Source of the DNA: a virus
Virus record (IMG/VR): IMGVR_UViG_3300036766_000678
Coordinates: 64,001 to 128,000 of that record
Direction: 5' to 3' (one strand)
DNA length: 64,000 nucleotides
Positions 42,465 to 58,236 of the stretch are shown here, in pieces. The position numbers were made by a program, and so were the translations under genes. The notes under the pieces are model-generated. The model was not told where the DNA came from, ran no database searches, and was given only the letters and a program-made list of their open reading frames with translations. The first letter of the stretch is position 1. Each line of letters opens with the position of its first letter.

Positions 42465-44367
42465 TCAGAATTACTGCCCTATTGTTTGAAAAGGGATTAC
42501 CTGCAATGAGCATAGTTTGACCTGGAGATACAGCTATTTGTTCAATAATAACCATGTTTGAAGAATTAGAATTTTGTCCTACTTGGTCTATTACAACCAA
42601 AGTACCACTGGACGAAACTGTGGAACTTTTAAAAATATTCGCAACTGAAATATTACTACTTCCAAAATTAGCATTAGCGGGAGTAAAAGGTGTTCCATCA
42701 GTTGTAATTGTTGGATTTTTAAACATAAGAAAAGTTACTTGTACATTAGTTACCTTGCAATTTCCAGTTACAGAAAAAACGTTCATAGTCTTTCCACTAC
42801 CTATTGGATTTTTAAATAAGAATATGGGATTATTAGAACCAGCAGTAGCTAAATTATAATTATCAATTGCAGCATAAAAAACTTTTCCAGAAGCTAAATC
42901 GGTTGATCCTGTAACAGAAACACTTAAAGTTGGTTGATCAATTGCTAATGTAACAGGAATAGAACTAGCCATTACCTTCTGTCCTAATGTAGTAGATGTA
43001 CCACCATACTTATCTATATTAATTCCTACATCAGATTGATCAGAAGCTATAACAACTGGCATCGAAGATGCCATTGTTTTCTGACCAAGTGTTACATCAG
43101 TTCCACCAAATCCACCAATATCAGAACGCAATCTTCCAGCAAGGGTTAATGTTAAAGGACTTGTTTGCCCATTTATATATGTTGGTGGACTTGTTGTTGC
43201 AGCAGCTTGAATAAGGATTCCCTTTTCACCAGATGTTGTTGATCCTTGAGAAACTTCTAAAGCTGCTACTGTAGTATCCAAAGCTAAAGCTGAAGTATTT
43301 AAATTAGTTCCTGCATTTGCTGTTACTGTACCAGATATAACCCAGGGACTTGTGCTCTGTGTAACAGCTACAGTCCCAGTAATAGTTGTAGAAGAAAGAG
43401 AAACAACCCAAGGTGAAGTTGATTGAGTTATAGCTATAGTTGCAGGAAAATTATTAACATCAACTTGTAAATCTCCAGTTGCATCAACTGTAGCTATATT
43501 TACACCCGCCGAATCTACAATTTCTATTGGCCATTTGTTAGACGCTGTATTAGGTGTACCCTGATTAGCTGTAACAATTCCACTTACTGGTTGCGTTACC
43601 TGACTACCATCTACAATTAATCTTCCTGCTGTAGTAAGAGTTAAATCAGAAAATTGAGTTGCTGTTAAAGAAGGGGAACTTGAAACAACTCTTGCTGCAA
43701 CAGCAGTACCTTTTGTTGTTCCTGGAGTATAAGTATCTCCAGAAGAATCTAAAGTATGTTGCTCCCCAGAAGAAACTCCACCAGTAATATTTACATTAAG
43801 TGATCCACTTGTGGATGTTAAACTATTACCAGATGTATCTTCTATTTTAGCAATTACAATTCCAGATACTGGTTGTGTTACTTGTGACCCATCAACAACA
43901 AGACGATTAGATGTTGAATCTATTCTTTCCCAAGTTACTCCATTAAATCCATATAAAAGAGCAGAATTTAAACCTACTGTTTGTCCAGCCGTAATTGACC
44001 CATTATCAAGAACTGTAGGAGTGGAAGATCCTGCTACATTTATACTCCCATCTGGGTTAACAATTAATTGATTTCCGCCATCAAATATAGCAGAACGAAG
44101 AGCATATCCATCAGGACCAAAATTAACTATTGCTAATGGATGGGAAGAACTATCTACAGGATCAACACCCTCTATAGTAACAGTTCCAACAGAAATAGTT
44201 CCCGAAATAGAAAGAGCACCCTGTGCATCTGCTCTGACGGGAATAAAACGATTATCGGGGGTAACAGAATATAATACAGAAATTGGTATTGAGCTGTTAA
44301 GCTGATCAGCGTCAAGCGGGGTATTATATTCGGGAGGTATTACATTTCCCATCTTAGTTTCCCCCAA
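42442..44367 (-). CDS. Fibre-like virion protein with internal repeats
   Basis: RL.VDGSQVTQPVSG x2, TQSTSPWV x2, LGQK.MASS.PV x2. Confidence 0.6.
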   Translation of the reverse strand: MGETKMGNVIPPEYNTPLDADQLNSSIPISVLYSVTPDNRFIPVRADAQGALSISGTISVGTVTIEGVDPVDSSSHPLAIVNFGPDGYALRSAIFDGGNQLIVNPDGSINVAGSSTPTVLDNGSITAGQTVGLNSALLYGFNGVTWERIDSTSNRLVVDGSQVTQPVSGIVIAKIEDTSGNSLTSTSGSLNVNITGGVSSGEQHTLDSSGDTYTPGTTKGTAVAARVVSSSPSLTATQFSDLTLTTAGRLIVDGSQVTQPVSGIVTANQGTPNTASNKWPIEIVDSAGVNIATVDATGDLQVDVNNFPATIAITQSTSPWVVSLSSTTITGTVAVTQSTSPWVISGTVTANAGTNLNTSALALDTTVAALEVSQGSTTSGEKGILIQAAATTSPPTYINGQTSPLTLTLAGRLRSDIGGFGGTDVTLGQKTMASSMPVVIASDQSDVGINIDKYGGTSTTLGQKVMASSIPVTLAIDQPTLSVSVTGSTDLASGKVFYAAIDNYNLATAGSNNPIFLFKNPIGSGKTMNVFSVTGNCKVTNVQVTFLMFKNPTITTDGTPFTPANANFGSSNISVANIFKSSTVSSSGTLVVIDQVGQNSNSSNMVIIEQIAVSPGQTMLIAGNPFSNNRAVILSVGWTEN

Positions 44368-45097
44368 ACTTCAATTTCAATGTTTTTTTAATACTATCAG
44401 ATTGTTTTTGTAATCGAGGATCTGTCTCTTTTGTTAAACCAGTATTCCAAGATTTAATAGCATCTGGTAGCCCTTTATTCCAAGGCACTTGATTATACTT
44501 TTTTCCTTTATTTGGAGAAGGTTTACCTAATCTTACTTCAATCATATGTGCTCTATAAATAGGATCTTTCCATCTTTCAATAGCAGCTTTTTTTAAAATA
44601 TCTTTATGTTCTTGAGATAGGGTATGACCTGTTGAGCTAGATTTACCTAAATGTGCCAGACGATTTTTCTCTTTGGCTTCTTCTGTATGGTGTTTCCCAA
44701 AAAATGGGTTTCCCGCCCCTAAAAATTGAATTTTTTTCTTCACACTCATCTTTTCACGAGATTCTTTAGAACGTTTAAGGCCCAAACTTGTACCAGCTTT
44801 TGGTGCTATATTATAGCCAATTTCTGGATTAACACTATTATAATAGTCCATCCAATATTGCTCTCTTATTTCTAGCAATTCTTTTGTTGGATTTTCAATT
44901 CTTTCTATTACAGAAAATTCAAATGCTTCTTCACCATATTTGTTCCAGGCAGCTTGCAAATGAGGATTATGATGCAGATCTTTTCTCAATAAACGTTTAT
45001 GTTCACACCATCTTTTAGAGAAATCAATAGCAGATCCAATATATGGTTTACCATTTACTTTATTTAGAATTTTATAAATTCCACTTTTAGTAACCAT
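44354..45097 (-). CDS. GIY-YIG homing endonuclease with NUMOD3 motifs
   Basis: SGIYKI..KPYIGSA; NPFFGKHHTEEAKEK. Confidence 0.9.
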   Translation of the reverse strand: MVTKSGIYKILNKVNGKPYIGSAIDFSKRWCEHKRLLRKDLHHNPHLQAAWNKYGEEAFEFSVIERIENPTKELLEIREQYWMDYYNSVNPEIGYNIAPKAGTSLGLKRSKESREKMSVKKKIQFLGAGNPFFGKHHTEEAKEKNRLAHLGKSSSTGHTLSQEHKDILKKAAIERWKDPIYRAHMIEVRLGKPSPNKGKKYNQVPWNKGLPDAIKSWNTGLTKETDPRLQKQSDSIKKTLKLKFGGN

Positions 45098-45098
45098 A

Positions 45099-45653
45099 CT
45101 ATTTCACCTGTAAATTTGAAAGACGTAACGTGAGGTTGTTCTTAAACTGACTTGAGGGTGTTTTACTTGAGATTTCTTTTAGTAGATCTATATTCCCGTT
45201 CTCCTTGATGAAACGCAACTTTAAGAAATGTGACAATTTGCAGAAATCTTCGTAAGAAAATACTTTTGTCAAATCTGTAATAGGTTCACTTTGGGATACA
45301 GAAACTTGATTCACTATCTTTACTTCAGGTAAAATTTGTTGTGGAGGAACTTCTGTTTGTGTTGGTAAAATTTGTGTATTTTGTTCAATAGATTCTACAT
45401 GTAAAACGAGTTTTTCTTCTGGAATTTCTTCTATCCATTTTCCATTAAGATAGCCCTTAAGACTTCCTACTTTAAAACTCTTTCTTACGTCCTCATCATC
45501 CAAGACATCAAAAGGTATTTCCTGACCCTCTTTGACCTCTAATGGTTGGGAAAAGCCATTTGAATAGGTAACATTCAAATCTAAAAATTTCAAAGTAGTA
45601 CTACACTCTTTAGCATTTTTAATACAGACACGATATCTTTTTTGCTTTTCCAT
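45099..45653 (-). CDS. Hypothetical protein
   Basis: 184 aa, coupled. Confidence 0.55.
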   Translation of the reverse strand: MEKQKRYRVCIKNAKECSTTLKFLDLNVTYSNGFSQPLEVKEGQEIPFDVLDDEDVRKSFKVGSLKGYLNGKWIEEIPEEKLVLHVESIEQNTQILPTQTEVPPQQILPEVKIVNQVSVSQSEPITDLTKVFSYEDFCKLSHFLKLRFIKENGNIDLLKEISSKTPSSQFKNNLTLRLSNLQVK

Positions 45654-46465
45654 TATCTTTTTCGTCCTCTTTTCTTTGGCTTTTTATCTTTTAGTCCTGC
45701 TTGTTCTAACAATTTACCATACCACTCAGAAGCTTCTAATAAATCTATATTATTATTTTTAACCCTATTAGCATGTGGAGTCAAATATTGTAGATTCCAA
45801 ATAACATGTAACCCAGATACAAAATCACCTTGCAAAGGAATATAATGATCTATTTCCATACCATTGGGTTTATTGGTATAGAATGTTTTAATTCCTCTTT
45901 GACCAAATTTAGGAATTCTAGATTTTCTTTTTATTTCTTGTTTTGTATTTGATAATCTATGTACTTCTGGATGAGCATCCCTATATTCTTTTGATTTAAT
46001 ATAAATTTCATCTTTGTGATCTTGGAAATATTTTCTATGATACTCTAAGATTTCCTCAAGATGAGTTAGATAATATTCTTTAGCTTTTGCTAAATTATCT
46101 AGATAATATTGACTATGATATTCTCTTCTTCTAATTTTAATTTCTTGCTTATTAATTTGAAAATAAATTTTTGCATATTCTTTAAGTTCTTCTAAATGTT
46201 CCTGCCTATATTTTTCATTATATGATCTTTTTTCTTCTTTATGTTCAAGTCTATATTTTATTTTACATAAATGGCATTCGCTCCATTCATCTCTACCACA
46301 TATAAAAGTATCATGCCCTCTTGAACAAAATTGCTGTTTAGGACGACCAATAGACCCTGGATGCCTTTCATCTATACATTGGTTGCATTGACTATTTTTA
46401 GTTTTACCACATATAAATGTGTCGTGGCCATAAATACAAAATTGCTTTTTCCATCCTTTAGCCAT
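45653..46465 (-). CDS. HNH homing endonuclease with two CxxGH modules
   Basis: DHYIPLQGDFVSGLHVIWNLQYL. Confidence 0.85.
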   Translation of the reverse strand: MAKGWKKQFCIYGHDTFICGKTKNSQCNQCIDERHPGSIGRPKQQFCSRGHDTFICGRDEWSECHLCKIKYRLEHKEEKRSYNEKYRQEHLEELKEYAKIYFQINKQEIKIRRREYHSQYYLDNLAKAKEYYLTHLEEILEYHRKYFQDHKDEIYIKSKEYRDAHPEVHRLSNTKQEIKRKSRIPKFGQRGIKTFYTNKPNGMEIDHYIPLQGDFVSGLHVIWNLQYLTPHANRVKNNNIDLLEASEWYGKLLEQAGLKDKKPKKRGRKR

Positions 46466-48422: not shown

Positions 48423-48635
48423 CTAAACAAACTTAGTTATTTTATAAAGATATTCTAGGTATTCTAAATTACCCATATTTCTTGGGCATTTACAAATTAT
48501 CCAATCCACAGTTTCTAATTTATAACAAATTCTTTCCCCATTTTTACACAAATAATGATCATAATGACCACAACCAGTACATTTAACATGGCGAATTAAA
48601 GAATTATCAATTTTCAAATCAGATGGAAAATCCAT
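48423..48635 (-). CDS. NLEYLE-family microprotein
   Basis: CTGCGHYDH..CKCPRNMGNLEYLEYLY. Confidence 0.7.
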   Translation of the reverse strand: MDFPSDLKIDNSLIRHVKCTGCGHYDHYLCKNGERICYKLETVDWIICKCPRNMGNLEYLEYLYKITKFV

Positions 48636-48641
48636 ATATTT

Positions 48642-48670
48642 ATTGTATCAGATCTTTATCTATTTGTCAA
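48642..48670 (-). promoter_or_regulatory. Sigma70 promoter, leaderless; may also drive the tRNAs
   Basis: TTGACA-17-TACAAT-6 nt-ATG. Confidence 0.75.
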
Positions 48671-49388
48671 GGGCTTTCTCTAATTCCCTTCTAACTGCTT
48701 GAGCTTTACACATTTTAATAAGAGTTTCTGGTTTGTGTTTTAGACCAAAATTGCTTTCAGCTACTTTGCGAATATTATACCCATTCCAATCTTCATAGGT
48801 TTTAAATTCATCAATATAATATTGCTCTCTTTCTAAAAGCTTAGAATGCTCTAAAACTTCTTCTAAAATAACACATTCGAAAGCTTTTTCTCCATACTTA
48901 TTCCAAGACTTTTGTAAATAGTCATTATCATGATCATTTAAATATAAATCATGCTTATGTTCTGACCAACGTTTCTCTACATTAATAGCAGAACCAATAT
49001 AAGCTTTCTTACTGATTTTATGAATAATGGCATAAATACCTGATATAGCTTTTCCAATTAAAGAAATTGCTACTTTAGAAATATCTTTATCTGGGGAATT
49101 ATATTTAACTACCCCAACGACAGCAGAACCATTTCTAAGTTTTTCGGGAACATTTAAGCGATTAATTGTTTGATAAGTAAGCCAACATTCTTTACTGCAA
49201 TATTCACTTTTAGAACTTGCAATTTTACCAAACTGTTTACCACAAAATAAACAAATTATATTTTTATGGCCTTTACAATCAGGAACATTCCCAATAGATT
49301 TATTATGACAAATTTCATCACAAAATTTCTCTAAGAAGAAACTATTTTTTGGAGCTTTTACGCAATATTTACATCTTAAATATTTCAT
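48660..49388 (-). CDS. GIY-YIG endonuclease with N-terminal Cys-rich domain
   Basis: SGIYAI..KAYIGSA..KRW in the C-terminal half; several CxxC pairs N-terminally. Confidence 0.85.
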   Translation of the reverse strand: MKYLRCKYCVKAPKNSFFLEKFCDEICHNKSIGNVPDCKGHKNIICLFCGKQFGKIASSKSEYCSKECWLTYQTINRLNVPEKLRNGSAVVGVVKYNSPDKDISKVAISLIGKAISGIYAIIHKISKKAYIGSAINVEKRWSEHKHDLYLNDHDNDYLQKSWNKYGEKAFECVILEEVLEHSKLLEREQYYIDEFKTYEDWNGYNIRKVAESNFGLKHKPETLIKMCKAQAVRRELEKALDK

Positions 49389-49504: not shown

Positions 49505-52218
49505 TTACGGAAGTGTAATACGAACAATTCCCTTTGCATATCGAACAAGAAACCCAATATCTTCCCAAATCTTCCTGTTACTTAAACCTTTTATCAAGGC
49601 GAGTAATTATTTCTAATTACTTCTTCATATTTCTATGAAGTTCGGACTATAACTTCATCCTTTCGGAGTCAGGCGTTTAGTCTCTACGGATTCTGAAAAC
49701 TTCTTCAGTCTTTCCTCGGTATTGTCTTCAACATTACTTGGTAAGAGTTCCACCGATACGGCCTAATTTTACTTCACCATTTGGAGGTACAATTTCTTGC
49801 ACACTTGTTTTATTTTAGCGAAGACATCTGCCATCTTATTAACCATTATGTTACGACTCTCTTTGCAAAGAAAGCGGTTAATCATTTCTGATTAACTCTT
49901 CATATTTCTATGAAGTTCGGATCATGTCATTATCTTTCGATATTCTGTGTATGATCTCTACACATTTCCTTATTTCTAAGGGTTAGCTCGAAGTTGCCTT
50001 TTGCCTTTCGGCAGTCAGGTTTTCTTCGAATTAGCAGAATTTTAGAAGGACATTAAAAATATTAGAAACTATTTTTAGAAGTTTATCCTTCATCGTTTCA
50101 ACTAAGAGGTCAGTACGAACAGCCAACACGCCAAGATAATCAGCGGGAGCGAGAACGTAACACTCTGAAGAAGGAACAACGACGGACTCTAGAACGTCAA
50201 CACCCATAATTCCACCTACGCGACCAGCTTTGAGGGCCATGTCCTGGAAATTAGGAGCGAAGATTCCTGCCCCGCCTGTACCAGAAGTAGTCGTATTGAA
50301 TAGAATTAGATCCTTACGTGTGAATGGATTGATCCATAGTTTGGAAGGAACCAAAAGCTTTGAGCTTAGAGTAACAATACCAGTTGCTAGGGCTTCCATC
50401 GTAAGTTTTGTTCCACCTGCGGAAAATACCGTAGGGTTGTTTGTTGCAGCACTCGTACCTGCGAGTGAAGCTACTGGGGTCTGATTCGTTAAGCCGGAGG
50501 CGAACAGAATCAACTGATAACCACGAGTATCTTCCTGTAGCATGATTGAGGCTTTTGCACGTTCTTGCTGTCTATTACTTTATGACCTACTGAGGTAGGC
50601 GGATAATTATTTCTAATTATCTCTCATTATTACTAATGAGGATGGACTATGACTTCACCCTGTTTAAGGGGCTCTACGTTTAGTCTCTGAGGATTTTGAA
50701 GATAATTAATAATTTTATTTTTAAGTTTCAAGACATCTTTTAACTCATAACTCCAAATAACAAGACATTCATGCCCGACTTCTTTGTATTGTTGAATTAC
50801 TTTAACTTCTTCATCTTTAGAATGAAAATGTTCTCCAAATAACTCAATCAATTTATTAGAATTTTTTACAACAAAGTCAGGATATTTTACATGCCCATCA
50901 TTTAAAATTACTTGAAAAGTAGCATCTCCAGTATATTCAATTTCAGAAAAACCTAAATTAAGAATCTGTTTCTCAGCATAGTTTGGTCTTTCACAACCAT
51001 TAGAAAGACATTCATGAGCAATCTCTCTAACCTTCATTACGTTATCTACTCCATATTTATTAAAAACACCATCTCTAGTTTTTAATTGAATTTCTGGAAC
51101 AGACAAAGTAGATTCAACACCATACTTATTTAAATTAGATTCTTTTCTATTTTCTACTGCTTTATCTTGGAAATCTGAAATCATCTCTTTCCAAGAATTT
51201 TGGTATTCTTCTGAATTATATTTACTATCTGGATCTTGCCATTTTTCTGAAACTTTAACACGTCGTTTGTCTTGAAATTCTTTAACTTGACTGGGATTAG
51301 AAACACCATACTTTTCCATACAAGTCTTTTTAGCTGAACTTATTCTCTTAACATTAAGAGAAGAATCTTCTAAAATAGCAAGTGGAAATTTCTGCCTATA
51401 GATATCAAAAGCCATACCATGTGTAAGCAAATGTGTTTTAGTAATCTTTAAAAAAGAATTCTGGCAAACTTCGCAATTAATCATTTTCAACCTTTCCTGC
51501 AAATTGTCCTCTTATTAATTATATCATAAAAGGATGTCCTTGCATATGGTAGAGTTTTACTAAATCTCTTTCGAGATTAGGAACCCATTGTGTTAAGTTC
51601 TGTTAAGAACATCATATTTCCTAAAATTACTTTCATTCCATCTAATCATAGGTCGAGTCGAAATAGGCGACGTTTCAACACGAATACGATCAGCTAGAAC
51701 TTCGAGCTGTTGGGGAAGTCCTTCTACACTAATAGATGCAGCAGGAACATCGAGATCAGCATCGAAAACAGCTTCCTCACCCAATGCCAACTTGTAGGTT
51801 TGGAATAGCTGACGAATACGGCCTTCATACAGAAGGTCTCGCTTTAGGGGCGATAACCATTATGTTAACTATATATTTCTATATAGATCGGACTATATCT
51901 TCATCCTATTTTATTAGGAGATCAACGTGTAGTCTCTACGGATTCTTGAAAACATCTTCAAGTCTTTCCTCGGTATTGTCTTGATAACGAACGTGCAAGT
52001 TCACCATCAGGTTTCCACCGATATAGTTGATTTTTTCCCATTCTCATTACTGAGAAGACAGACGTTTATGGTTGTGTATGGATAGGAGATTCTTTCAAAA
52101 TCTGTTGGGCGATCTTTTGAAGACCCCCAGGCGAATTCATCAGCCGAGTTAGTTTTTCTTCAACTTGGGCACTTGAAAGTACCTCGGATGAAGCTGTAAC
52201 ATTCAGCTTGTCATTCAT
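49505..52218 (-). CDS. Major capsid protein, spliced from 5 exons (52218-52100, 51857-51596, 50567-50085, 49843-49817, 49570-49505); 318 aa
   Basis: Joining at U| and G| boundaries gives one 957-nt open frame (..KIAQQ-M-LSPLKR..LNRT-QERAK..TMKD-VNKMADVFA-IWEDIG..TLP*). Capsid identity inferred from synteny (after protease and decoration genes) and size. Confidence 0.8.
49571..49816 (-). mobile_element. Group I intron 4 (246 nt, no ORF)
   Basis: P7 GAGACUA / AUAGUCC; IGS UCCAAAU-GGUGAAG pairs both exons; ends in G. Confidence 0.9.
49844..50084 (-). mobile_element. Group I intron 3 (241 nt, no ORF)
   Basis: Variant P7 GAUCA/UGAUC; IGS GUCCUUC pairs exon GAAGGAU; ends AACAUAAUG. Confidence 0.85.
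50568..51595 (-). mobile_element. Group I intron 2 (1028 nt) with endonuclease ORF
   Basis: P1 GAACU/GGUUC; CUCAGAGACUA and CAUAGUCC; ends in G. Confidence 0.88.
50633..51502 (-). CDS. Intron-encoded Vsr/PD-(D/E)xK-like homing endonuclease
   Basis: KYPDFVV..KLIELFGEHFH..CLVIWSYEL; KYGV repeats; 3' end overlaps the intron core. Confidence 0.75.
   Translation of the reverse strand: MQERLKMINCEVCQNSFLKITKTHLLTHGMAFDIYRQKFPLAILEDSSLNVKRISSAKKTCMEKYGVSNPSQVKEFQDKRRVKVSEKWQDPDSKYNSEEYQNSWKEMISDFQDKAVENRKESNLNKYGVESTLSVPEIQLKTRDGVFNKYGVDNVMKVREIAHECLSNGCERPNYAEKQILNLGFSEIEYTGDATFQVILNDGHVKYPDFVVKNSNKLIELFGEHFHSKDEEVKVIQQYKEVGHECLVIWSYELKDVLKLKNKIINYLQNPQRLNVEPLKQGEVIVHPH
51858..52099 (-). mobile_element. 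Group I intron 1 (242 nt, no ORF)
   Basis: CCGUAGAGACUA and GAUAUAGUCC; IGS GUCUGU pairs exon ACAGAU; ends AACAUAAUG. Confidence 0.9.
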
Positions 52219-52286
52219 ATAAATCTCCTTTAAATTACAAGTCAGCCTCACGGCCAATCTTGTTTACAACTAAACTCTAATTAAAA

Positions 52287-52757
52287 TTAGAGAATTGACT
52301 TAATTTCCAACTGGGTAGGATTGGTAGCAGTATCGTAACCAACAACATATCCAACAATAACGCCCGTTGTGGTAGCAGATGTGATAATACCATCTGTTGC
52401 ACTAGACGTGTATACTGGAGCATTAACTGCATACGTTGTGGCTGCGTAAGGTGATCCACGACCATCATCAAACAGGACGAAATCTCCACCGTTTAAATAA
52501 ACGGATTCGAGACCTCCCCTATTAAAATTCGTGTAATCAAAACCTTGACCAGCTACTTCACCATTTGAGGGTTGGAGTGGGAAAAATACATTTGATTCAA
52601 TTGCAAGACCATAGGGCTTACCAGTTGTATTGGTTTTGACCCAAGGCTGAACTGTTCCATCTGCATTAATCTGTAATGCCATTCCACCAACAATATTCCC
52701 AGAGAGAATTTTGGCACCGCCGCTGCGGTTAACTTCCTTAATCTGACGTATTGCCAT
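52287..52757 (-). CDS. Putative head decoration/cement protein
   Basis: 156 aa from MAIRQIK (AAGGAG SD), directly upstream of the capsid gene. Confidence 0.6.
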   Translation of the reverse strand: MAIRQIKEVNRSGGAKILSGNIVGGMALQINADGTVQPWVKTNTTGKPYGLAIESNVFFPLQPSNGEVAGQGFDYTNFNRGGLESVYLNGGDFVLFDDGRGSPYAATTYAVNAPVYTSSATDGIITSATTTGVIVGYVVGYDTATNPTQLEIKSIL

Positions 52758-52960: not shown

Positions 52961-53527
52961 CTATTTTAATCCTGCTTCTTCTAACAACTTACCATACCAT
53001 TCTGACACTTCAAGTAAATTGCATTTATTATGCTTTCGGGCATTCTGGGTTTGTGTAAGACATTGTAAATTCCAAGAAACATGTAATCCAGATACTTTTT
53101 TACCTTGCAATGGAATATAATGATCCCCAACCATATCATCTGGTTTATTTTTATAAAATTCAATTATATTATCCCAGTCTGTCCAAGCTACCTCTCTAAG
53201 ATTTCTATTTGTCTGATTTTTGATATTGTATGCTAAACATTTTTCTCGATTATTTATAAAATATTGCCTATCAATTTCGGCCTTTTGTTCTCTATGATTA
53301 TCCCACCATTCTTTTTGTTTGAGTGCTAAAATAGGGCCATTTTCAGTACGATAATCTTTCATTTTAGCCAAAAGAATATCTCTATGTTCTTGAAAATATT
53401 CTTTATAATAATTAGAGTTTTCTAAACTCCATTGCCTTTTACAATCATTACAAGCATTTCTGGAATCTCTTCCATAAATATTTGTGTCATGACCATGTTT
53501 ACAAAATTGAGATTTAGGTCTAGCCAT
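52961..53527 (-). CDS. HNH homing endonuclease with CxxGH module
   Basis: DHYIPLQGKKVSGLHVSWNLQCL. Confidence 0.85.
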   Translation of the reverse strand: MARPKSQFCKHGHDTNIYGRDSRNACNDCKRQWSLENSNYYKEYFQEHRDILLAKMKDYRTENGPILALKQKEWWDNHREQKAEIDRQYFINNREKCLAYNIKNQTNRNLREVAWTDWDNIIEFYKNKPDDMVGDHYIPLQGKKVSGLHVSWNLQCLTQTQNARKHNKCNLLEVSEWYGKLLEEAGLK

Positions 53528-53529
53528 GT

Positions 53530-56500
53530 TTATTTTTTAGGTACATCATTAATTGTCTTATGTTTTAATGTGCCCATACTTCTAAAAATATTTCCAACTT
53601 CGTCATGATCACTAGGATCATAAGTCAAATAAGGGACACGAGTGGCTTTCTTCTCATTAACTGTAGAAGAGGGCATTGGAAGTTCTTCAATAGCTTTTTC
53701 CATGGCCTTTAACGCCATATCATCGAAGGCAAGTAATTCTTTATGCTTGGCCTTAATTGCATGAGTCATAGCTTTATGACGAGCATCTAATAGATAAGTA
53801 CCAGATTTAAGTTCACTATCTAGTACATCTGGGCTCAATTGAAGAACATTTTTGTCAACCATATTAGCAACAATTTTCTGGCATCGTTCAGAACGTGCAG
53901 AAAGAATAGCAGCAAATTTCTTTGCTTTCTCTTCCTCTTGAGCCTTAACTTCAATAGCTTTTAGTTCGGCCTCTTTCTTAGAAATAGCTTCCTCACGAGT
54001 TTTAAGAGCAGATTCTTTCATACCCATTTCATCTTCATGAGCTTCTTCAAGTGCGGGATGCTCTTCAACTTTAGGAGCCTCTTCCATCTTAGGAGCTTCT
54101 GGCATAGCGGGAGCCATCTCAGGCTTTTTTTCCTCAACTGGAGGAAGACCAAGAACAGCTTTCATAAGCTTAAGCACTTCACCAACTTCTTTACCAAAAC
54201 CATCTGGCAATCTTTTAACTTCCTTGCCATCTTTCTCAATAATAACTTCTTTAGATTCTTTGTCCTTATGAGCAGAGTATCCTTCACCAATATCAAGTTT
54301 ATCTGCTTTATCAAATGCAGAAACTTCTTCTTTAGGAGTATCACCAGGGAGAGCTAAATTCTCAGTTTCGTGCTCAGGAACTCCAGCAGGTTTCTCTTCA
54401 ACCTTAACATCATCAACTAAAGGATCTGCGTGTTCAGGTGTAGGAGGCATTTCAGTTGCAGCAGATTTATTAACAGCCACATCTGGCTCTTTTGTAAGAT
54501 TAGGAGTAGTATGTTCTGTTTTACCTTTAACAGCTTCATCAGGCTTGCTAGAGGGATTAGAAGAAGGTTCCTTTTTATCCTTTACTGCTTGATCTGGTTC
54601 CTTAGTTAAATTAGGTGTCTTATTTACTTTATCCCCATCAACACTTGTTTCAGGAGTAGCAGATTTGCCTTCTTCTGGTAAAGTTGTACCCTTAACAGAT
54701 TCATCTGGTTTTGCATCAAATTTTTTCGTACCTTCTGGTAAAGTAGATCCATCAACTGCTTCTGTTGGTTTATCAGCTGCTTTCTTTTCCATAATAGTCT
54801 CCTGAGATGATTTCTTTGGAACATCCATACCCTTTTCTCTAGCTTCAGAATAGGCTGCTGCTACCGCTTGGGCTCGTTCCATTCCATCTTCTTTAATATG
54901 TTTTTCTACATGCTTCTTAATAAATTCTTGTGCTTCGGGTGTCATTGAAGACCACTTAATTTGTGCATTAGCTTCTTTATAATTAACAGAGGCTTTCTTT
55001 TCATCAACTAATTTGCAAGGTTTACCATTCATACTATGTCGTCCATATTCCAGCATCTCACCACATTCGGGACATTTTGTTGCTGCTTCTTTTTTAGAAC
55101 CCTTCTCTTCAGCTTCCATTTCCTCAGTTCCCTTAGCTACATAAGAAGTTTCAACCTCTTTCTCTGATTTCTCCAGTTTCTTCTCTTCTGGATTCTTAGG
55201 AGTAGTGGTAACTTCTTTACCTTCAGCTTCAGGCTTAGGTTCTGAATAATCTGTTTTTACTTCTTTTGCTTTAGGGGCGGCAGGTCCTGTTTGACCCTTT
55301 TCCTGCCCTGGCATTTTAAATTGTGGATCAGTCTTAGCATCTGTACCTGCTGGTGCTGCTGGACCTTTTTGAGCTTGTTCCTGTCCTGGTTTTGTTACTG
55401 GGGAATTTTTAACATTGTGTTCTTTATTATTTGTGCCAGTAGAAGGTTTTGCATAACTACCATCAGGTCCTAGTTCTGGACCTTTTGCGGTTTTATTTAA
55501 TTTATGTGTTACATCCCATAAATCAGCCAATTTCTCAATTCCTTCTTTAGTATAACGAGCAACAACCTCTTTACCATATGCTTCACTGGTTGCCCATTTC
55601 TGATCATCAAAAGAAAGTGTTTCAAATGTACTACCCCAAATATCTTTAAGAGAAGCATCTAATAGGCACTTAGCATCTTCATACACTGACCAAGTAGAAG
55701 CAAGTACATTATTTTTATCTTCATTAAATTTGGCTGAGATGGAAGATTTCTTATCTTTTTTCTTCCCATAATCACATGTTACACACGTAACTTCATCCCC
55801 CACTTTACGGGCAGCAACACTATCACAGTTTGGACATTTGACAAATTCTGTTTTAGCTGTTTCTTTTCCCAATTCCTCTTTAGCCACTGCTTCAACTTTC
55901 TTTTCCAATAATTGAGCAGCAAAGCTATCTTTTACTTTAGCCACAATTCTAGATAGAAATGTTTCTTCTTTCTTAGTGGCATCAGCAACCACTTCTTTAT
56001 TAACTACTTCGTTAGCTTTCTTGGTTTTATGCTGAATATAGCTCTCAAGTTGCTCCATTTCTAGGGCGGAAATTTTTGATAAAATCTTTTTTTGATCTTC
56101 GGATACAATATTCTTATCTGACATGGATGACTCCTTGGATGATTCTTGTGCTTCTTTATCAGTAGTTGGGCAAATTCCGCAGAACTCAGCCTTCAAATTT
56201 TTTGCTGTCTCTGAATCTACTTTAGTTAAAAGACCTTCAAATTGTTTTACAAAATCTTGTTGCTCATCTTTAGAAAGAGCGGCGGTTTTCGAAAGTCTGC
56301 TTCTCATATTGCTTAAAATTGTTTTCACAATCGCTTTAGGGTCTGCGGGAATTCCAACCAAAGACAATTCATTGAATGCAATCCCACTATTTAAAGACAT
56401 GGCTTTAACTTTTTGACCTTTAGAAATGTTATACTTAAGATTATCAACTTCAGCATCAAACTCATGTCCCAAAGAAAATGCTTCAAGATGTTTACAACGT

Positions 56501-58236
56501 GGATCAGCATCTGAATGAAGAACCAAACCACACACGCTACACGCACTTTCATCAACGGAACAATTGTGAACAGCAACACCATTAACAAGATAAGAATTTT
56601 TCTCTTTAACACTAAAATTATAGACAAGTAATTTTTGATCTTCTACTTCAATACCACTAATTGGGATCATTAAATAATTATTTACTAAAAGTTTCTGTTG
56701 TTTATTACCACCTACAGGCAAACCAGTAGGAATCTTATCACAATATTTTGCCATTTCATGTAATGATTCCCCTGAAATACAAATTCTATATGTTCTAGAG
56801 GCAGCAATTGTTTTAGTGCCACTTTTAAAATTAGCTATTTTTTCTTTATAATGCTTTTCTTCTAATGCAAAAAGAAGAGAAGCACGACAAAATAACCATG
56901 CCATCTGATAAATAAAAGCTTGGGAAGCAGTTTCCAAATAGGCACGTCTAATATGGGGATGAGCATCTTTTCTATTTATCTCTTCATAATCGCTATAGCA
57001 GCCATCCCCGCAAAGAAATGCTCCTAGAAGTTCTTTTTGGAATTCAATATTCCATAAAAGAACAGAGGGATCAAGCTTTTTAGTTTTAGCTTTTTCTCCA
57101 CCTAATTGCATTAATTTTTCTGCCAGTTCTTTATCATATATAAAAATACGGCAAGCATTTAATTTTGGATATTTCTTTATAGTTACTTTCTTTTTAGTAA
57201 TAGAGCTAATAAGGGTTTTAATCTCTTTAGCATATTTGGCTTCTTTTATATGCAAAGTAAACATTGCTCCACCAACTAAATTGCAACGACAAATCTTATT
57301 TACTTTTCTACATGGGTAACATTTATAATAAATAATATTGCCCTCTGCAAGATACCAACCTAAAAGACGTGCAAACTCTTTAGTTATATTATCGGGGGTT
57401 TTTTCTTCTTTAGAAAAGGGAAAAGATACATAATCCCCTGGACGAAGATTCTCAGCAGATATCCACTCAAAATATTTAGCATTACTGGCTATTTTTTCTA
57501 GGGATTGCCCAGTAATACTATGCCCTGCCTCAACTAAAGAGACAGAATTTAAAATATTAATTATGTTCTCTTTTTTTATGCTCCAAAAAGGATGTTCATT
57601 TGTGGCAGTAATAGGAAGTTTTGTAAATCCTAAAAGTTTTAAAGTATACATTAACCCGTCATAAGGTCTAATCATTGTTTCAATTACTTCATCAGAAAGA
57701 CCTAAATGATTTAAAACTTTATCCCCTACTTTGATATCTTCGATATTTTTAAAGGTATGATCGGATAGTAAAATTTGGGTCCCTTCTTTAAAACAACCCA
57801 TACTCACCGTGTTCAAAATACCAGTTTGAACTTGCCTCGCTAGTTCAGGAAATAAATATTTATCGAGCTTCGCTAATACTTCAATATATTTCTCACCAGT
57901 CTCTGGATCTTCAACAGGATATGAGTCGATGAGTCTGCCCACGGCTTTCAAAACCGAATCAGCCGAATGGTCTATGTACAATCCCTTTCCTTGAAAAGAA
58001 GCATAACTTTTTAAAAGATCATCCCAACCAAACGCATCCCAATTGCCGTTAGCTCCATTTGTTTCATAACTTGAAATTGCACGAGCCCTCAGATACAAAA
58101 ACTGTTCGTTTTTAGGTTCAATGATATGTGAAGATCCTGGAACCTTTTCTTCCATAGGACGATCAATCAATAATTCTTCCACTGCTGCGGCAGTTTTTAA
58201 AATCTTCCATGAAGAACCAATTTTTTGTAATGACAT
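53530..58236 (-). CDS. Prohead protease-scaffold polyprotein with intein
   Basis: N-terminal protease (YIDH..., VSMG) and a long acidic E/K/P-rich coiled-coil C-terminus. Confidence 0.75.
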   Translation of the reverse strand: MSLQKIGSSWKILKTAAAVEELLIDRPMEEKVPGSSHIIEPKNEQFLYLRARAISSYETNGANGNWDAFGWDDLLKSYASFQGKGLYIDHSADSVLKAVGRLIDSYPVEDPETGEKYIEVLAKLDKYLFPELARQVQTGILNTVSMGCFKEGTQILLSDHTFKNIEDIKVGDKVLNHLGLSDEVIETMIRPYDGLMYTLKLLGFTKLPITATNEHPFWSIKKENIINILNSVSLVEAGHSITGQSLEKIASNAKYFEWISAENLRPGDYVSFPFSKEEKTPDNITKEFARLLGWYLAEGNIIYYKCYPCRKVNKICRCNLVGGAMFTLHIKEAKYAKEIKTLISSITKKKVTIKKYPKLNACRIFIYDKELAEKLMQLGGEKAKTKKLDPSVLLWNIEFQKELLGAFLCGDGCYSDYEEINRKDAHPHIRRAYLETASQAFIYQMAWLFCRASLLFALEEKHYKEKIANFKSGTKTIAASRTYRICISGESLHEMAKYCDKIPTGLPVGGNKQQKLLVNNYLMIPISGIEVEDQKLLVYNFSVKEKNSYLVNGVAVHNCSVDESACSVCGLVLHSDADPRCKHLEAFSLGHEFDAEVDNLKYNISKGQKVKAMSLNSGIAFNELSLVGIPADPKAIVKTILSNMRSRLSKTAALSKDEQQDFVKQFEGLLTKVDSETAKNLKAEFCGICPTTDKEAQESSKESSMSDKNIVSEDQKKILSKISALEMEQLESYIQHKTKKANEVVNKEVVADATKKEETFLSRIVAKVKDSFAAQLLEKKVEAVAKEELGKETAKTEFVKCPNCDSVAARKVGDEVTCVTCDYGKKKDKKSSISAKFNEDKNNVLASTWSVYEDAKCLLDASLKDIWGSTFETLSFDDQKWATSEAYGKEVVARYTKEGIEKLADLWDVTHKLNKTAKGPELGPDGSYAKPSTGTNNKEHNVKNSPVTKPGQEQAQKGPAAPAGTDAKTDPQFKMPGQEKGQTGPAAPKAKEVKTDYSEPKPEAEGKEVTTTPKNPEEKKLEKSEKEVETSYVAKGTEEMEAEEKGSKKEAATKCPECGEMLEYGRHSMNGKPCKLVDEKKASVNYKEANAQIKWSSMTPEAQEFIKKHVEKHIKEDGMERAQAVAAAYSEAREKGMDVPKKSSQETIMEKKAADKPTEAVDGSTLPEGTKKFDAKPDESVKGTTLPEEGKSATPETSVDGDKVNKTPNLTKEPDQAVKDKKEPSSNPSSKPDEAVKGKTEHTTPNLTKEPDVAVNKSAATEMPPTPEHADPLVDDVKVEEKPAGVPEHETENLALPGDTPKEEVSAFDKADKLDIGEGYSAHKDKESKEVIIEKDGKEVKRLPDGFGKEVGEVLKLMKAVLGLPPVEEKKPEMAPAMPEAPKMEEAPKVEEHPALEEAHEDEMGMKESALKTREEAISKKEAELKAIEVKAQEEEKAKKFAAILSARSERCQKIVANMVDKNVLQLSPDVLDSELKSGTYLLDARHKAMTHAIKAKHKELLAFDDMALKAMEKAIEELPMPSSTVNEKKATRVPYLTYDPSDHDEVGNIFRSMGTLKHKTINDVPKK
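56563..57795 (-). mobile_element. Intein (411 aa) with LAGLIDADG endonuclease
   Basis: SMG|CFKEGTQI...LLGWYLAEG...LLGAFLCGDG...VYNFSV...AVHN|C. Confidence 0.92.

Follow-up and report, generated by a model that had tools for sequence, protein, structure and literature searches.

The major capsid gene of a tailed phage of about 180 kb is predicted to be divided into five exons by four group I introns. It lies on the minus strand at positions 49505–52218 of the window, by which we mean the whole 64,000-nt stretch of DNA analyzed here (positions 64,001 to 128,000 of IMG/VR record IMGVR_UViG_3300036766_000678). Joining the exons yields a single 957-nt frame encoding 318 amino acids and a stop codon. 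From the evidence below, we put at roughly 93% the probability that the four ribozymes self-splice from the late transcript and that all four steps are required. The gene is laid out as follows, in window coordinates.

52225–52230, minus strand: Shine-Dalgarno-like AAGGAG, 5′ of the capsid start codon, recognized by sequence
52100–52218, minus strand: exon 1, 119 nt, codons 1–40, ending within the Met40 codon
51858–52099, minus strand: group I intron 1, 242 nt, ORF-less, with P2, a short P9 end and the guide wobble G at 52063 (Rfam RF00028, 58.9 bits)
51596–51857, minus strand: exon 2, 262 nt, running to Thr127 (phrog_2522 67–153)
50568–51595, minus strand: group I intron 2, 1028 nt, whose core is interrupted in the P6 loop by an ORF; wobble G at 51585
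50085–50567, minus strand: exon 3, 483 nt, Gln128–Asp288 (phrog_2522 154–285, E 2e-12)
49844–50084, minus strand: group I intron 3, 241 nt, ORF-less, without P2, wobble G at 50051
49817–49843, minus strand: exon 4, 27 nt, Val289–Ala297, including the invariant Asp294
49571–49816, minus strand: group I intron 4, 246 nt, ORF-less, without P2, wobble G at 49778
49505–49570, minus strand: exon 5, 66 nt, Ile298–Pro318 and the stop codon

The junctions were fixed by comparison with L001, an intronless allele that aligns with the spliced frame over all 318 residues without a gap (97.5% amino acid and 85% nucleotide identity); L002 likewise aligns gap-free, at 87.4% amino acid identity. The DNA flanking each junction is colinear with L001, no slide is possible at junctions 1–3, and junction 4 could move by 1 nt only if the exon U and the terminal ωG were lost. 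The four introns, the 27-nt micro-exon and the restored 318-residue frame of the original prediction are thereby confirmed to the base, and its account of the introns lacked only the 283-residue endonuclease ORF carried by intron 2. The gap-free alignment also excluded core-less mini-introns in this gene. L078, considered as a possible spliced copy of the window gene, was rejected on finding that it is identical to L001.

Exons 2 and 3 match contiguous parts of the phrog_2522 major head protein profile. The structure was modelled for P0001, a relative identical to the spliced protein at 311 of 318 residues (97.8%; seven differences), with 84 homologs, and the best structural matches of this model are HK97 capsids (Foldseek E 7e-10). 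The nearest cultured capsid protein is gp27 of phage G (29% identity, E 3e-25), followed by those of Tunturiibacter phage Tunturi_5 and Bxz1/I3-like mycobacteriophages (24–27%). Pfam returned no match for the exons or for full-length relatives, and the GTDB genome contigs searched held no relative. Together, the profile match, the gp27 similarity and the fold predicted via P0001 support the proposed identity as a major capsid protein with the HK97 fold. No intact second copy was found in the 180,416-bp genome, and on the strength of the model this is the sole HK97-fold major capsid gene of a phage distantly related to phage G and the Bxz1-like phages.

All four introns follow an exon U, end in ωG and form, in the minimum-energy fold of their 5′ end, a P1 helix containing a U·G pair, as had been proposed for pairing of the internal guide with the 5′ exon. 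P1 and P10 measure 6/3, 5/2, 7/5 and 7/7 bp in introns 1–4, respectively, so that the further claim of pairing between the guides of introns 3 and 4 and the 3′ exon also holds (P10 of 5 and 7 bp). Among 275 candidate U sites, the true junction ranks 5, 9, 1 and 1 for the guides of introns 1–4. In introns 1, 3 and 4, P3–P9 are paired and the P3/P7 pseudoknot core is present; the core of intron 2, read from the sequence together with Rfam and nhmmer matches, has its two halves on either side of the ORF. Only intron 1 passes the gathering score of RF00028; the 3′ half of intron 2 scored 41.6 bits and its other half 16.1 bits, and introns 3 and 4 were not found in the RF00028 search. The coverage of phage introns by this model is known to have gaps (PMC11878797).

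Because Rfam accepts only intron 1, we tested the structure directly by covariation, using an alignment of 24 related cores (intron 2 left out) on the canonical P3–P9.1 structure. Of all cells, 91.6% keep their pairing, and 37 of the 46 pairs have changed on both sides; none of 500 shuffles reaches the observed value, and structures slid along the alignment are 36–44% paired. P7 is 99% paired, and the guanosine-binding G–C pair is present in every core (24/24). In intron 3, the most divergent core, compensatory swaps are seen in P4, in P6 and at two pairs of P7. The P7.1/P7.2 insertion and a large P5abc are absent: P3 begins 2–3 nt after P7, and P5 is a short hairpin. By these features they are not of the IA2 type commonly seen in T4 and Twort; the window introns are probably IB-like. 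A single 17-nt core motif retrieves 100 IMG/VR loci, placing the intron family widely among uncultured phages, and by these structural signatures all four inserts are group I introns of this one widespread family.

In the mechanism we favor, each compact ribozyme would fold on the late transcript, its guide would set the splice sites by forming P1 with the U·G pair first and P10 thereafter, and GTP-initiated two-step transesterification would remove each intron to give the 957-nt mRNA and the 318-residue protein. Retention of any one intron leads to an in-frame stop within 0–17 codons, and in-frame stops are a known feature of such introns that is thought to aid their folding (PMC3984707). Given the single gene copy and these stops, the expectation that capsid output depends on four splices is sustained, with splicing in vivo being what we infer from the intact cores and guides.

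A reading of the inserts as decayed or non-splicing elements, with the gene a pseudogene or an assembly artefact, could appeal to the failure of three of the four introns to pass the Rfam gathering score, but is barely credible. At 15% nucleotide divergence from L001, the protein has changed at just 8 of 318 residues, which indicates exons under purifying selection; the core helices and guides are all intact, the genome has no other capsid gene, and the same intron sites are found in independent assemblies. We also regard as very unlikely a scheme of regulated splicing, in which skipping of exon 4 or retention of intron 3 or 4 would furnish a second functional capsid isoform, for instance for pentons. 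Exon 4 is in frame, and the intron 3 guide can pair with exon 5 (3-bp P10, −10.9 vs −12.2 kcal/mol), so that an exon-4-skipped RNA may form, as at the three-intron gene of Twort, where exon skipping is reported in the passage of PMC3073962 that cites it. However, residues 289–297 are gapped in none of 85 homologs, Asp294 is invariant and Phe296 is kept in 84 of 85, and in the model the segment forms a turn and the start of a long strand in the core β-hairpin. Skipping would thus remove an invariant Asp within a never-gapped segment, making a functional isoform unlikely, and the useful skipped isoform once envisaged finds no support here. Retention of intron 3 or 4 would in turn swap 21–30 conserved residues for unrelated peptides, and intronless relatives encode the capsid protein in one frame.

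With respect to origin, spread of a single founder inside the capsid gene, through local duplication or reverse-splicing transposition, would fit the 84% identity of introns 1 and 4 over 111 nt and the clustering of all four introns of the genome in one gene, no further intron of this family having been detected elsewhere in the 180,416 bp. Local spread does occur in the family, as the two ORF-less introns of L231 are sisters (98/95). We nevertheless consider it unlikely for the window, in which the introns group with those of other phages rather than with their neighbors wherever the core tree is resolved, many of its branches not being so. There, intron 2 falls with the same-site intron of L231, its closest relative (93/99), intron 3 with L153 (82/89), and intron 4 with C-terminal introns (82/81). 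Site 1 is common to L126, whose intron has an ORF, and to L231, and site 2 is common to L231, a distant capsid gene. Since sites 1 and 2 recur in L231 and the window introns group with those of other phages, the four introns were apparently gained separately, not by in-place duplication.

In our reading they are selfish elements that settled in a conserved gene invaded again and again, with intron 2 carrying a putative endonuclease for homing and introns 1, 3 and 4 having either lost their ORF or been mobilized in trans. At synonymous sites, divergence from L001 amounts to 47% in the 100 nt next to a splice site, against 25% beyond (p 1e-4), as co-conversion would give, in a comparison that comprises one genome pair with one contiguous low-divergence block and in which some intronless control pairs contrast similarly. 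The P5 stem-loop of intron 4 is exactly matched in group I introns of unrelated phages in other host genes (L259, L261, L263, L265 and L266; L258, L262 and L264), indicating a probable exchange of intron modules.

Intron 2 contributes two further features.

50633–51484, minus strand: intron-encoded 283-aa putative homing endonuclease (PF24308, phrog_3339)
51518–51526, minus strand: extended −10-like motif within the P5 loop (TGnTATAAT)

The ORF combines DUF7487 repeats with a C-terminal PD-(D/E)XK domain of the Vsr/EDxHD type, and its 3′ end overlaps P7, P3 and P8 of the intron. Asp203 and Glu214 are invariant among homologs, and His219/221 are present. The best structural match of the C-terminal domain is I-Bth0305I (3R3P; Z 11.2, rmsd 2.5 over 91 residues), ranked first only by VIA re-alignment, with Vsr at Z 9.3; phmmer against PDB sequences found nothing real and Foldseek returned no match with E < 0.001. 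A Phe occupies the Asp position of the E-x-D-G motif usual in the family, leaving activity of the intron 2 endonuclease uncertain. We refer to the protein as a putative, candidate capsid-targeting homing endonuclease. I-Bth0305I is likewise a Vsr-fold endonuclease within a phage group I intron, namely that in recA of Bacillus phage 0305phi8-36 (PMC3239194). The intron 2 protein differs in its 18% identity, its DUF7487 DNA-binding repeats, its not fully canonical motif and its presumed target, the capsid gene.

TATAAT occurs in the P5 loop of three of five ORF-bearing introns and in none of 16 ORF-less or decayed ones, and is a candidate internal promoter for the endonuclease gene. The same hexamer, often as TGnTATAAT, is seen in P5 loops of L073, L144 and L234 introns. 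A promoter/terminator scan was at chance level (15 hits vs 15.5 expected).

Within the capsid family, we delineated 21 introns, the four of the window included, at 14 distinct sites; with two further sites seen from one end only, the family has at least 14. Every one of the 21 has the exon U, the terminal G and a P1 guide. The relatives retrieved are mostly intronless, in searches that favor intact genes. L123 carries an upstream intron two codons before site 1. L231 (824–2333) has introns at window sites 1 and 2 and at a third site, the site-2 intron bearing a decayed endonuclease remnant. L228 (2800–4560) and L235 represent a distant family member with at least four introns and an exon of about 14 nt, in which the ORF of the last intron is broken by a stop. 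In L234 (2200–10100; IMGVR_UViG_3300032053_000045), about 17 group I cores lie within 8 kb, the shortest apparent exons being about 10 nt; the gene they interrupt probably encodes an unrelated major capsid protein (weak phrog_617 match, E 0.09). A single 957-nt gene thus accommodates introns at no fewer than 14 sites, and its alleles, 75–97% identical in protein, include intronless, multi-intron and splicing-optional forms, a range that makes the cost of self-splicing introns in highly expressed phage genes testable.

The splicing-optional alleles are those of seven relatives that carry a close relative of intron 4 no more than 15 codons from the stop, at three sites.

L004, 5544–5788: tail-carrying intron
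L006, 5544–5785: tail-carrying intron
L154, 470–736: tail-carrying intron
L157, 352–610: tail-carrying intron
L123, 935–1207: tail-carrying intron
L267, 2417–2689: tail-carrying intron
L271, 2429–2704: tail-carrying intron

In each of these (7/7, which are all the introns this close to the stop; an eighth candidate, L094 from about 3043, is cut off by the contig end), the 5′ bases of the intron encode a peptide of the length of the last exon followed by a stop codon. In L004, for example, this stand-in reads KSIVKIVVS and the true exon KGIVKIVVS. Pooling six independent cases, stand-in and true tail differ with pS 0.85 and pN 0.19 (Fisher p 8e-17, in a test whose sites and lineages are not fully independent), and each stand-in is closest, or joint closest, to the tail of its own host. 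The stand-in lies in the P1 loop, pairing of the guides to the splice site upstream is retained, and the true last exon is better conserved than its copy.

Most simply, working capsid protein would be translated from the unspliced RNA of these alleles. We think it rather probable that incomplete capsid splicing is costly enough to have shaped the introns, the stand-in letting both RNAs give full-length protein; its synonymous recoding may guard against recombinational deletion or against cutting by the homing endonuclease. To judge from these sequences, P0004, P0015 and P0039 are unspliced read-through proteins that each hide an intron, and P0001 is probably another; P0031, P0067 and P0090 have unusual C-termini and no downstream intron, and P0037 was not counted in this check since its contig ends too early. 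Our literature search found no description of such a stand-in tail. If this reading is true, gene callers see an intact gene in the tail-carrying alleles, and the family offers a ready-made set of alleles in which to measure what splicing costs a phage late gene.

Intron 4 of the window and the L004 tail-carrying intron share about 90% identity across 161 nt, but the window intron has no stand-in: reading on from the exon, introns 3 and 4 encode unrelated peptides of 17 and 15 residues, respectively. The other delineated introns more than 20 codons from the stop also lack one. The 5′ end of intron 3 was considered as an L004-like stand-in and rejected, the stretch being a hairpin that pairs with the guide, and the two cores being distant. 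As the window introns lie at least 21 codons from the end and have no stand-in, this phage would depend fully on four splices.

Capsid genes interrupted by introns have been described before, and the rarity implied for the window arrangement finds no support (PMC7886860, PMC3706429). In the crAss-like Zeta cMAG OLRF01000054, the capsid ORF is in five fragments separated by group I-type introns, and introns in the capsid gene are given as a typical trait of the Delta group (Yutin et al. 2021, PMC7886860). That gene resembles the window gene in its five pieces, but belongs to another capsid lineage and to genomes that are intron-rich overall, and three of its four introns have ORFs; in the window, three of four are ORF-less ribozymes of 241–246 nt, and all detected introns are in the capsid gene. 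The major capsid gene of mycobacteriophage LittleE likewise has a probable group I intron with a homing endonuclease and U/G boundaries, for which RT-PCR and protein sequencing demonstrated splicing (Pope et al. 2013, PMC3706429); it differs in having one intron, with a LAGLIDADG-like ORF on the opposite strand. In Staphylococcus phage Twort, too, a single gene carries more than one group I intron, three in all and similar to each other (Landthaler and Shub 1999, as cited in PMC3073962); the citing text does not equate that gene with the one for the major capsid protein. Most introns of Twort-type phages are IA2-like (PMC11878797), unlike those of the window, in which P3 directly follows P7 without P7.1/P7.2. 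The published five-piece gene, LittleE and Twort make the arrangement less new than had been claimed; new here is a multi-intron capsid gene in a lineage related to phage G and Bxz1. Its recognition puts right how an essential gene is annotated, one that gene callers fragment and whose introns Rfam mostly misses, and the window supplies three small natural ribozymes as well as the candidate capsid-targeting endonuclease.

Two neighbors flank the capsid gene.

52287–52757, minus strand: 156-aa probable capsid decoration protein, upstream, intron-free in the window (weak PF23982, E 0.04)
48660–49388, minus strand: free-standing GIY-YIG endonuclease gene directly downstream of the capsid gene (PF01541, E 3e-13)

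The upstream order is an intein-containing protease/scaffold gene, an endonuclease VII-like gene, the probable decoration gene and then the capsid gene. The GIY-YIG gene adjoins the intronless capsid gene of L001 too, and its product is a candidate, by position, for mobilizing the ORF-less 3′ introns in trans. The head module is dense in mobile elements, comprising an intein, free-standing nucleases and introns. The prohead protease/scaffold gene (53530–58236) encodes 1568 amino acids, and its intein has an endonuclease domain; free-standing nuclease genes lie at 52961–53527 and at the GIY-YIG locus, and probably also at 44354–45097 and 45653–46465. In L009/L010 (2735–2960), an intron of the same family interrupts the first codons of the decoration gene, and in L272 (765–975) one lies in the gap upstream of the capsid gene. 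Finally, a small Cys/His-rich ORF at window positions 48423–48635 ends in an NLEYLEYLY-type motif.
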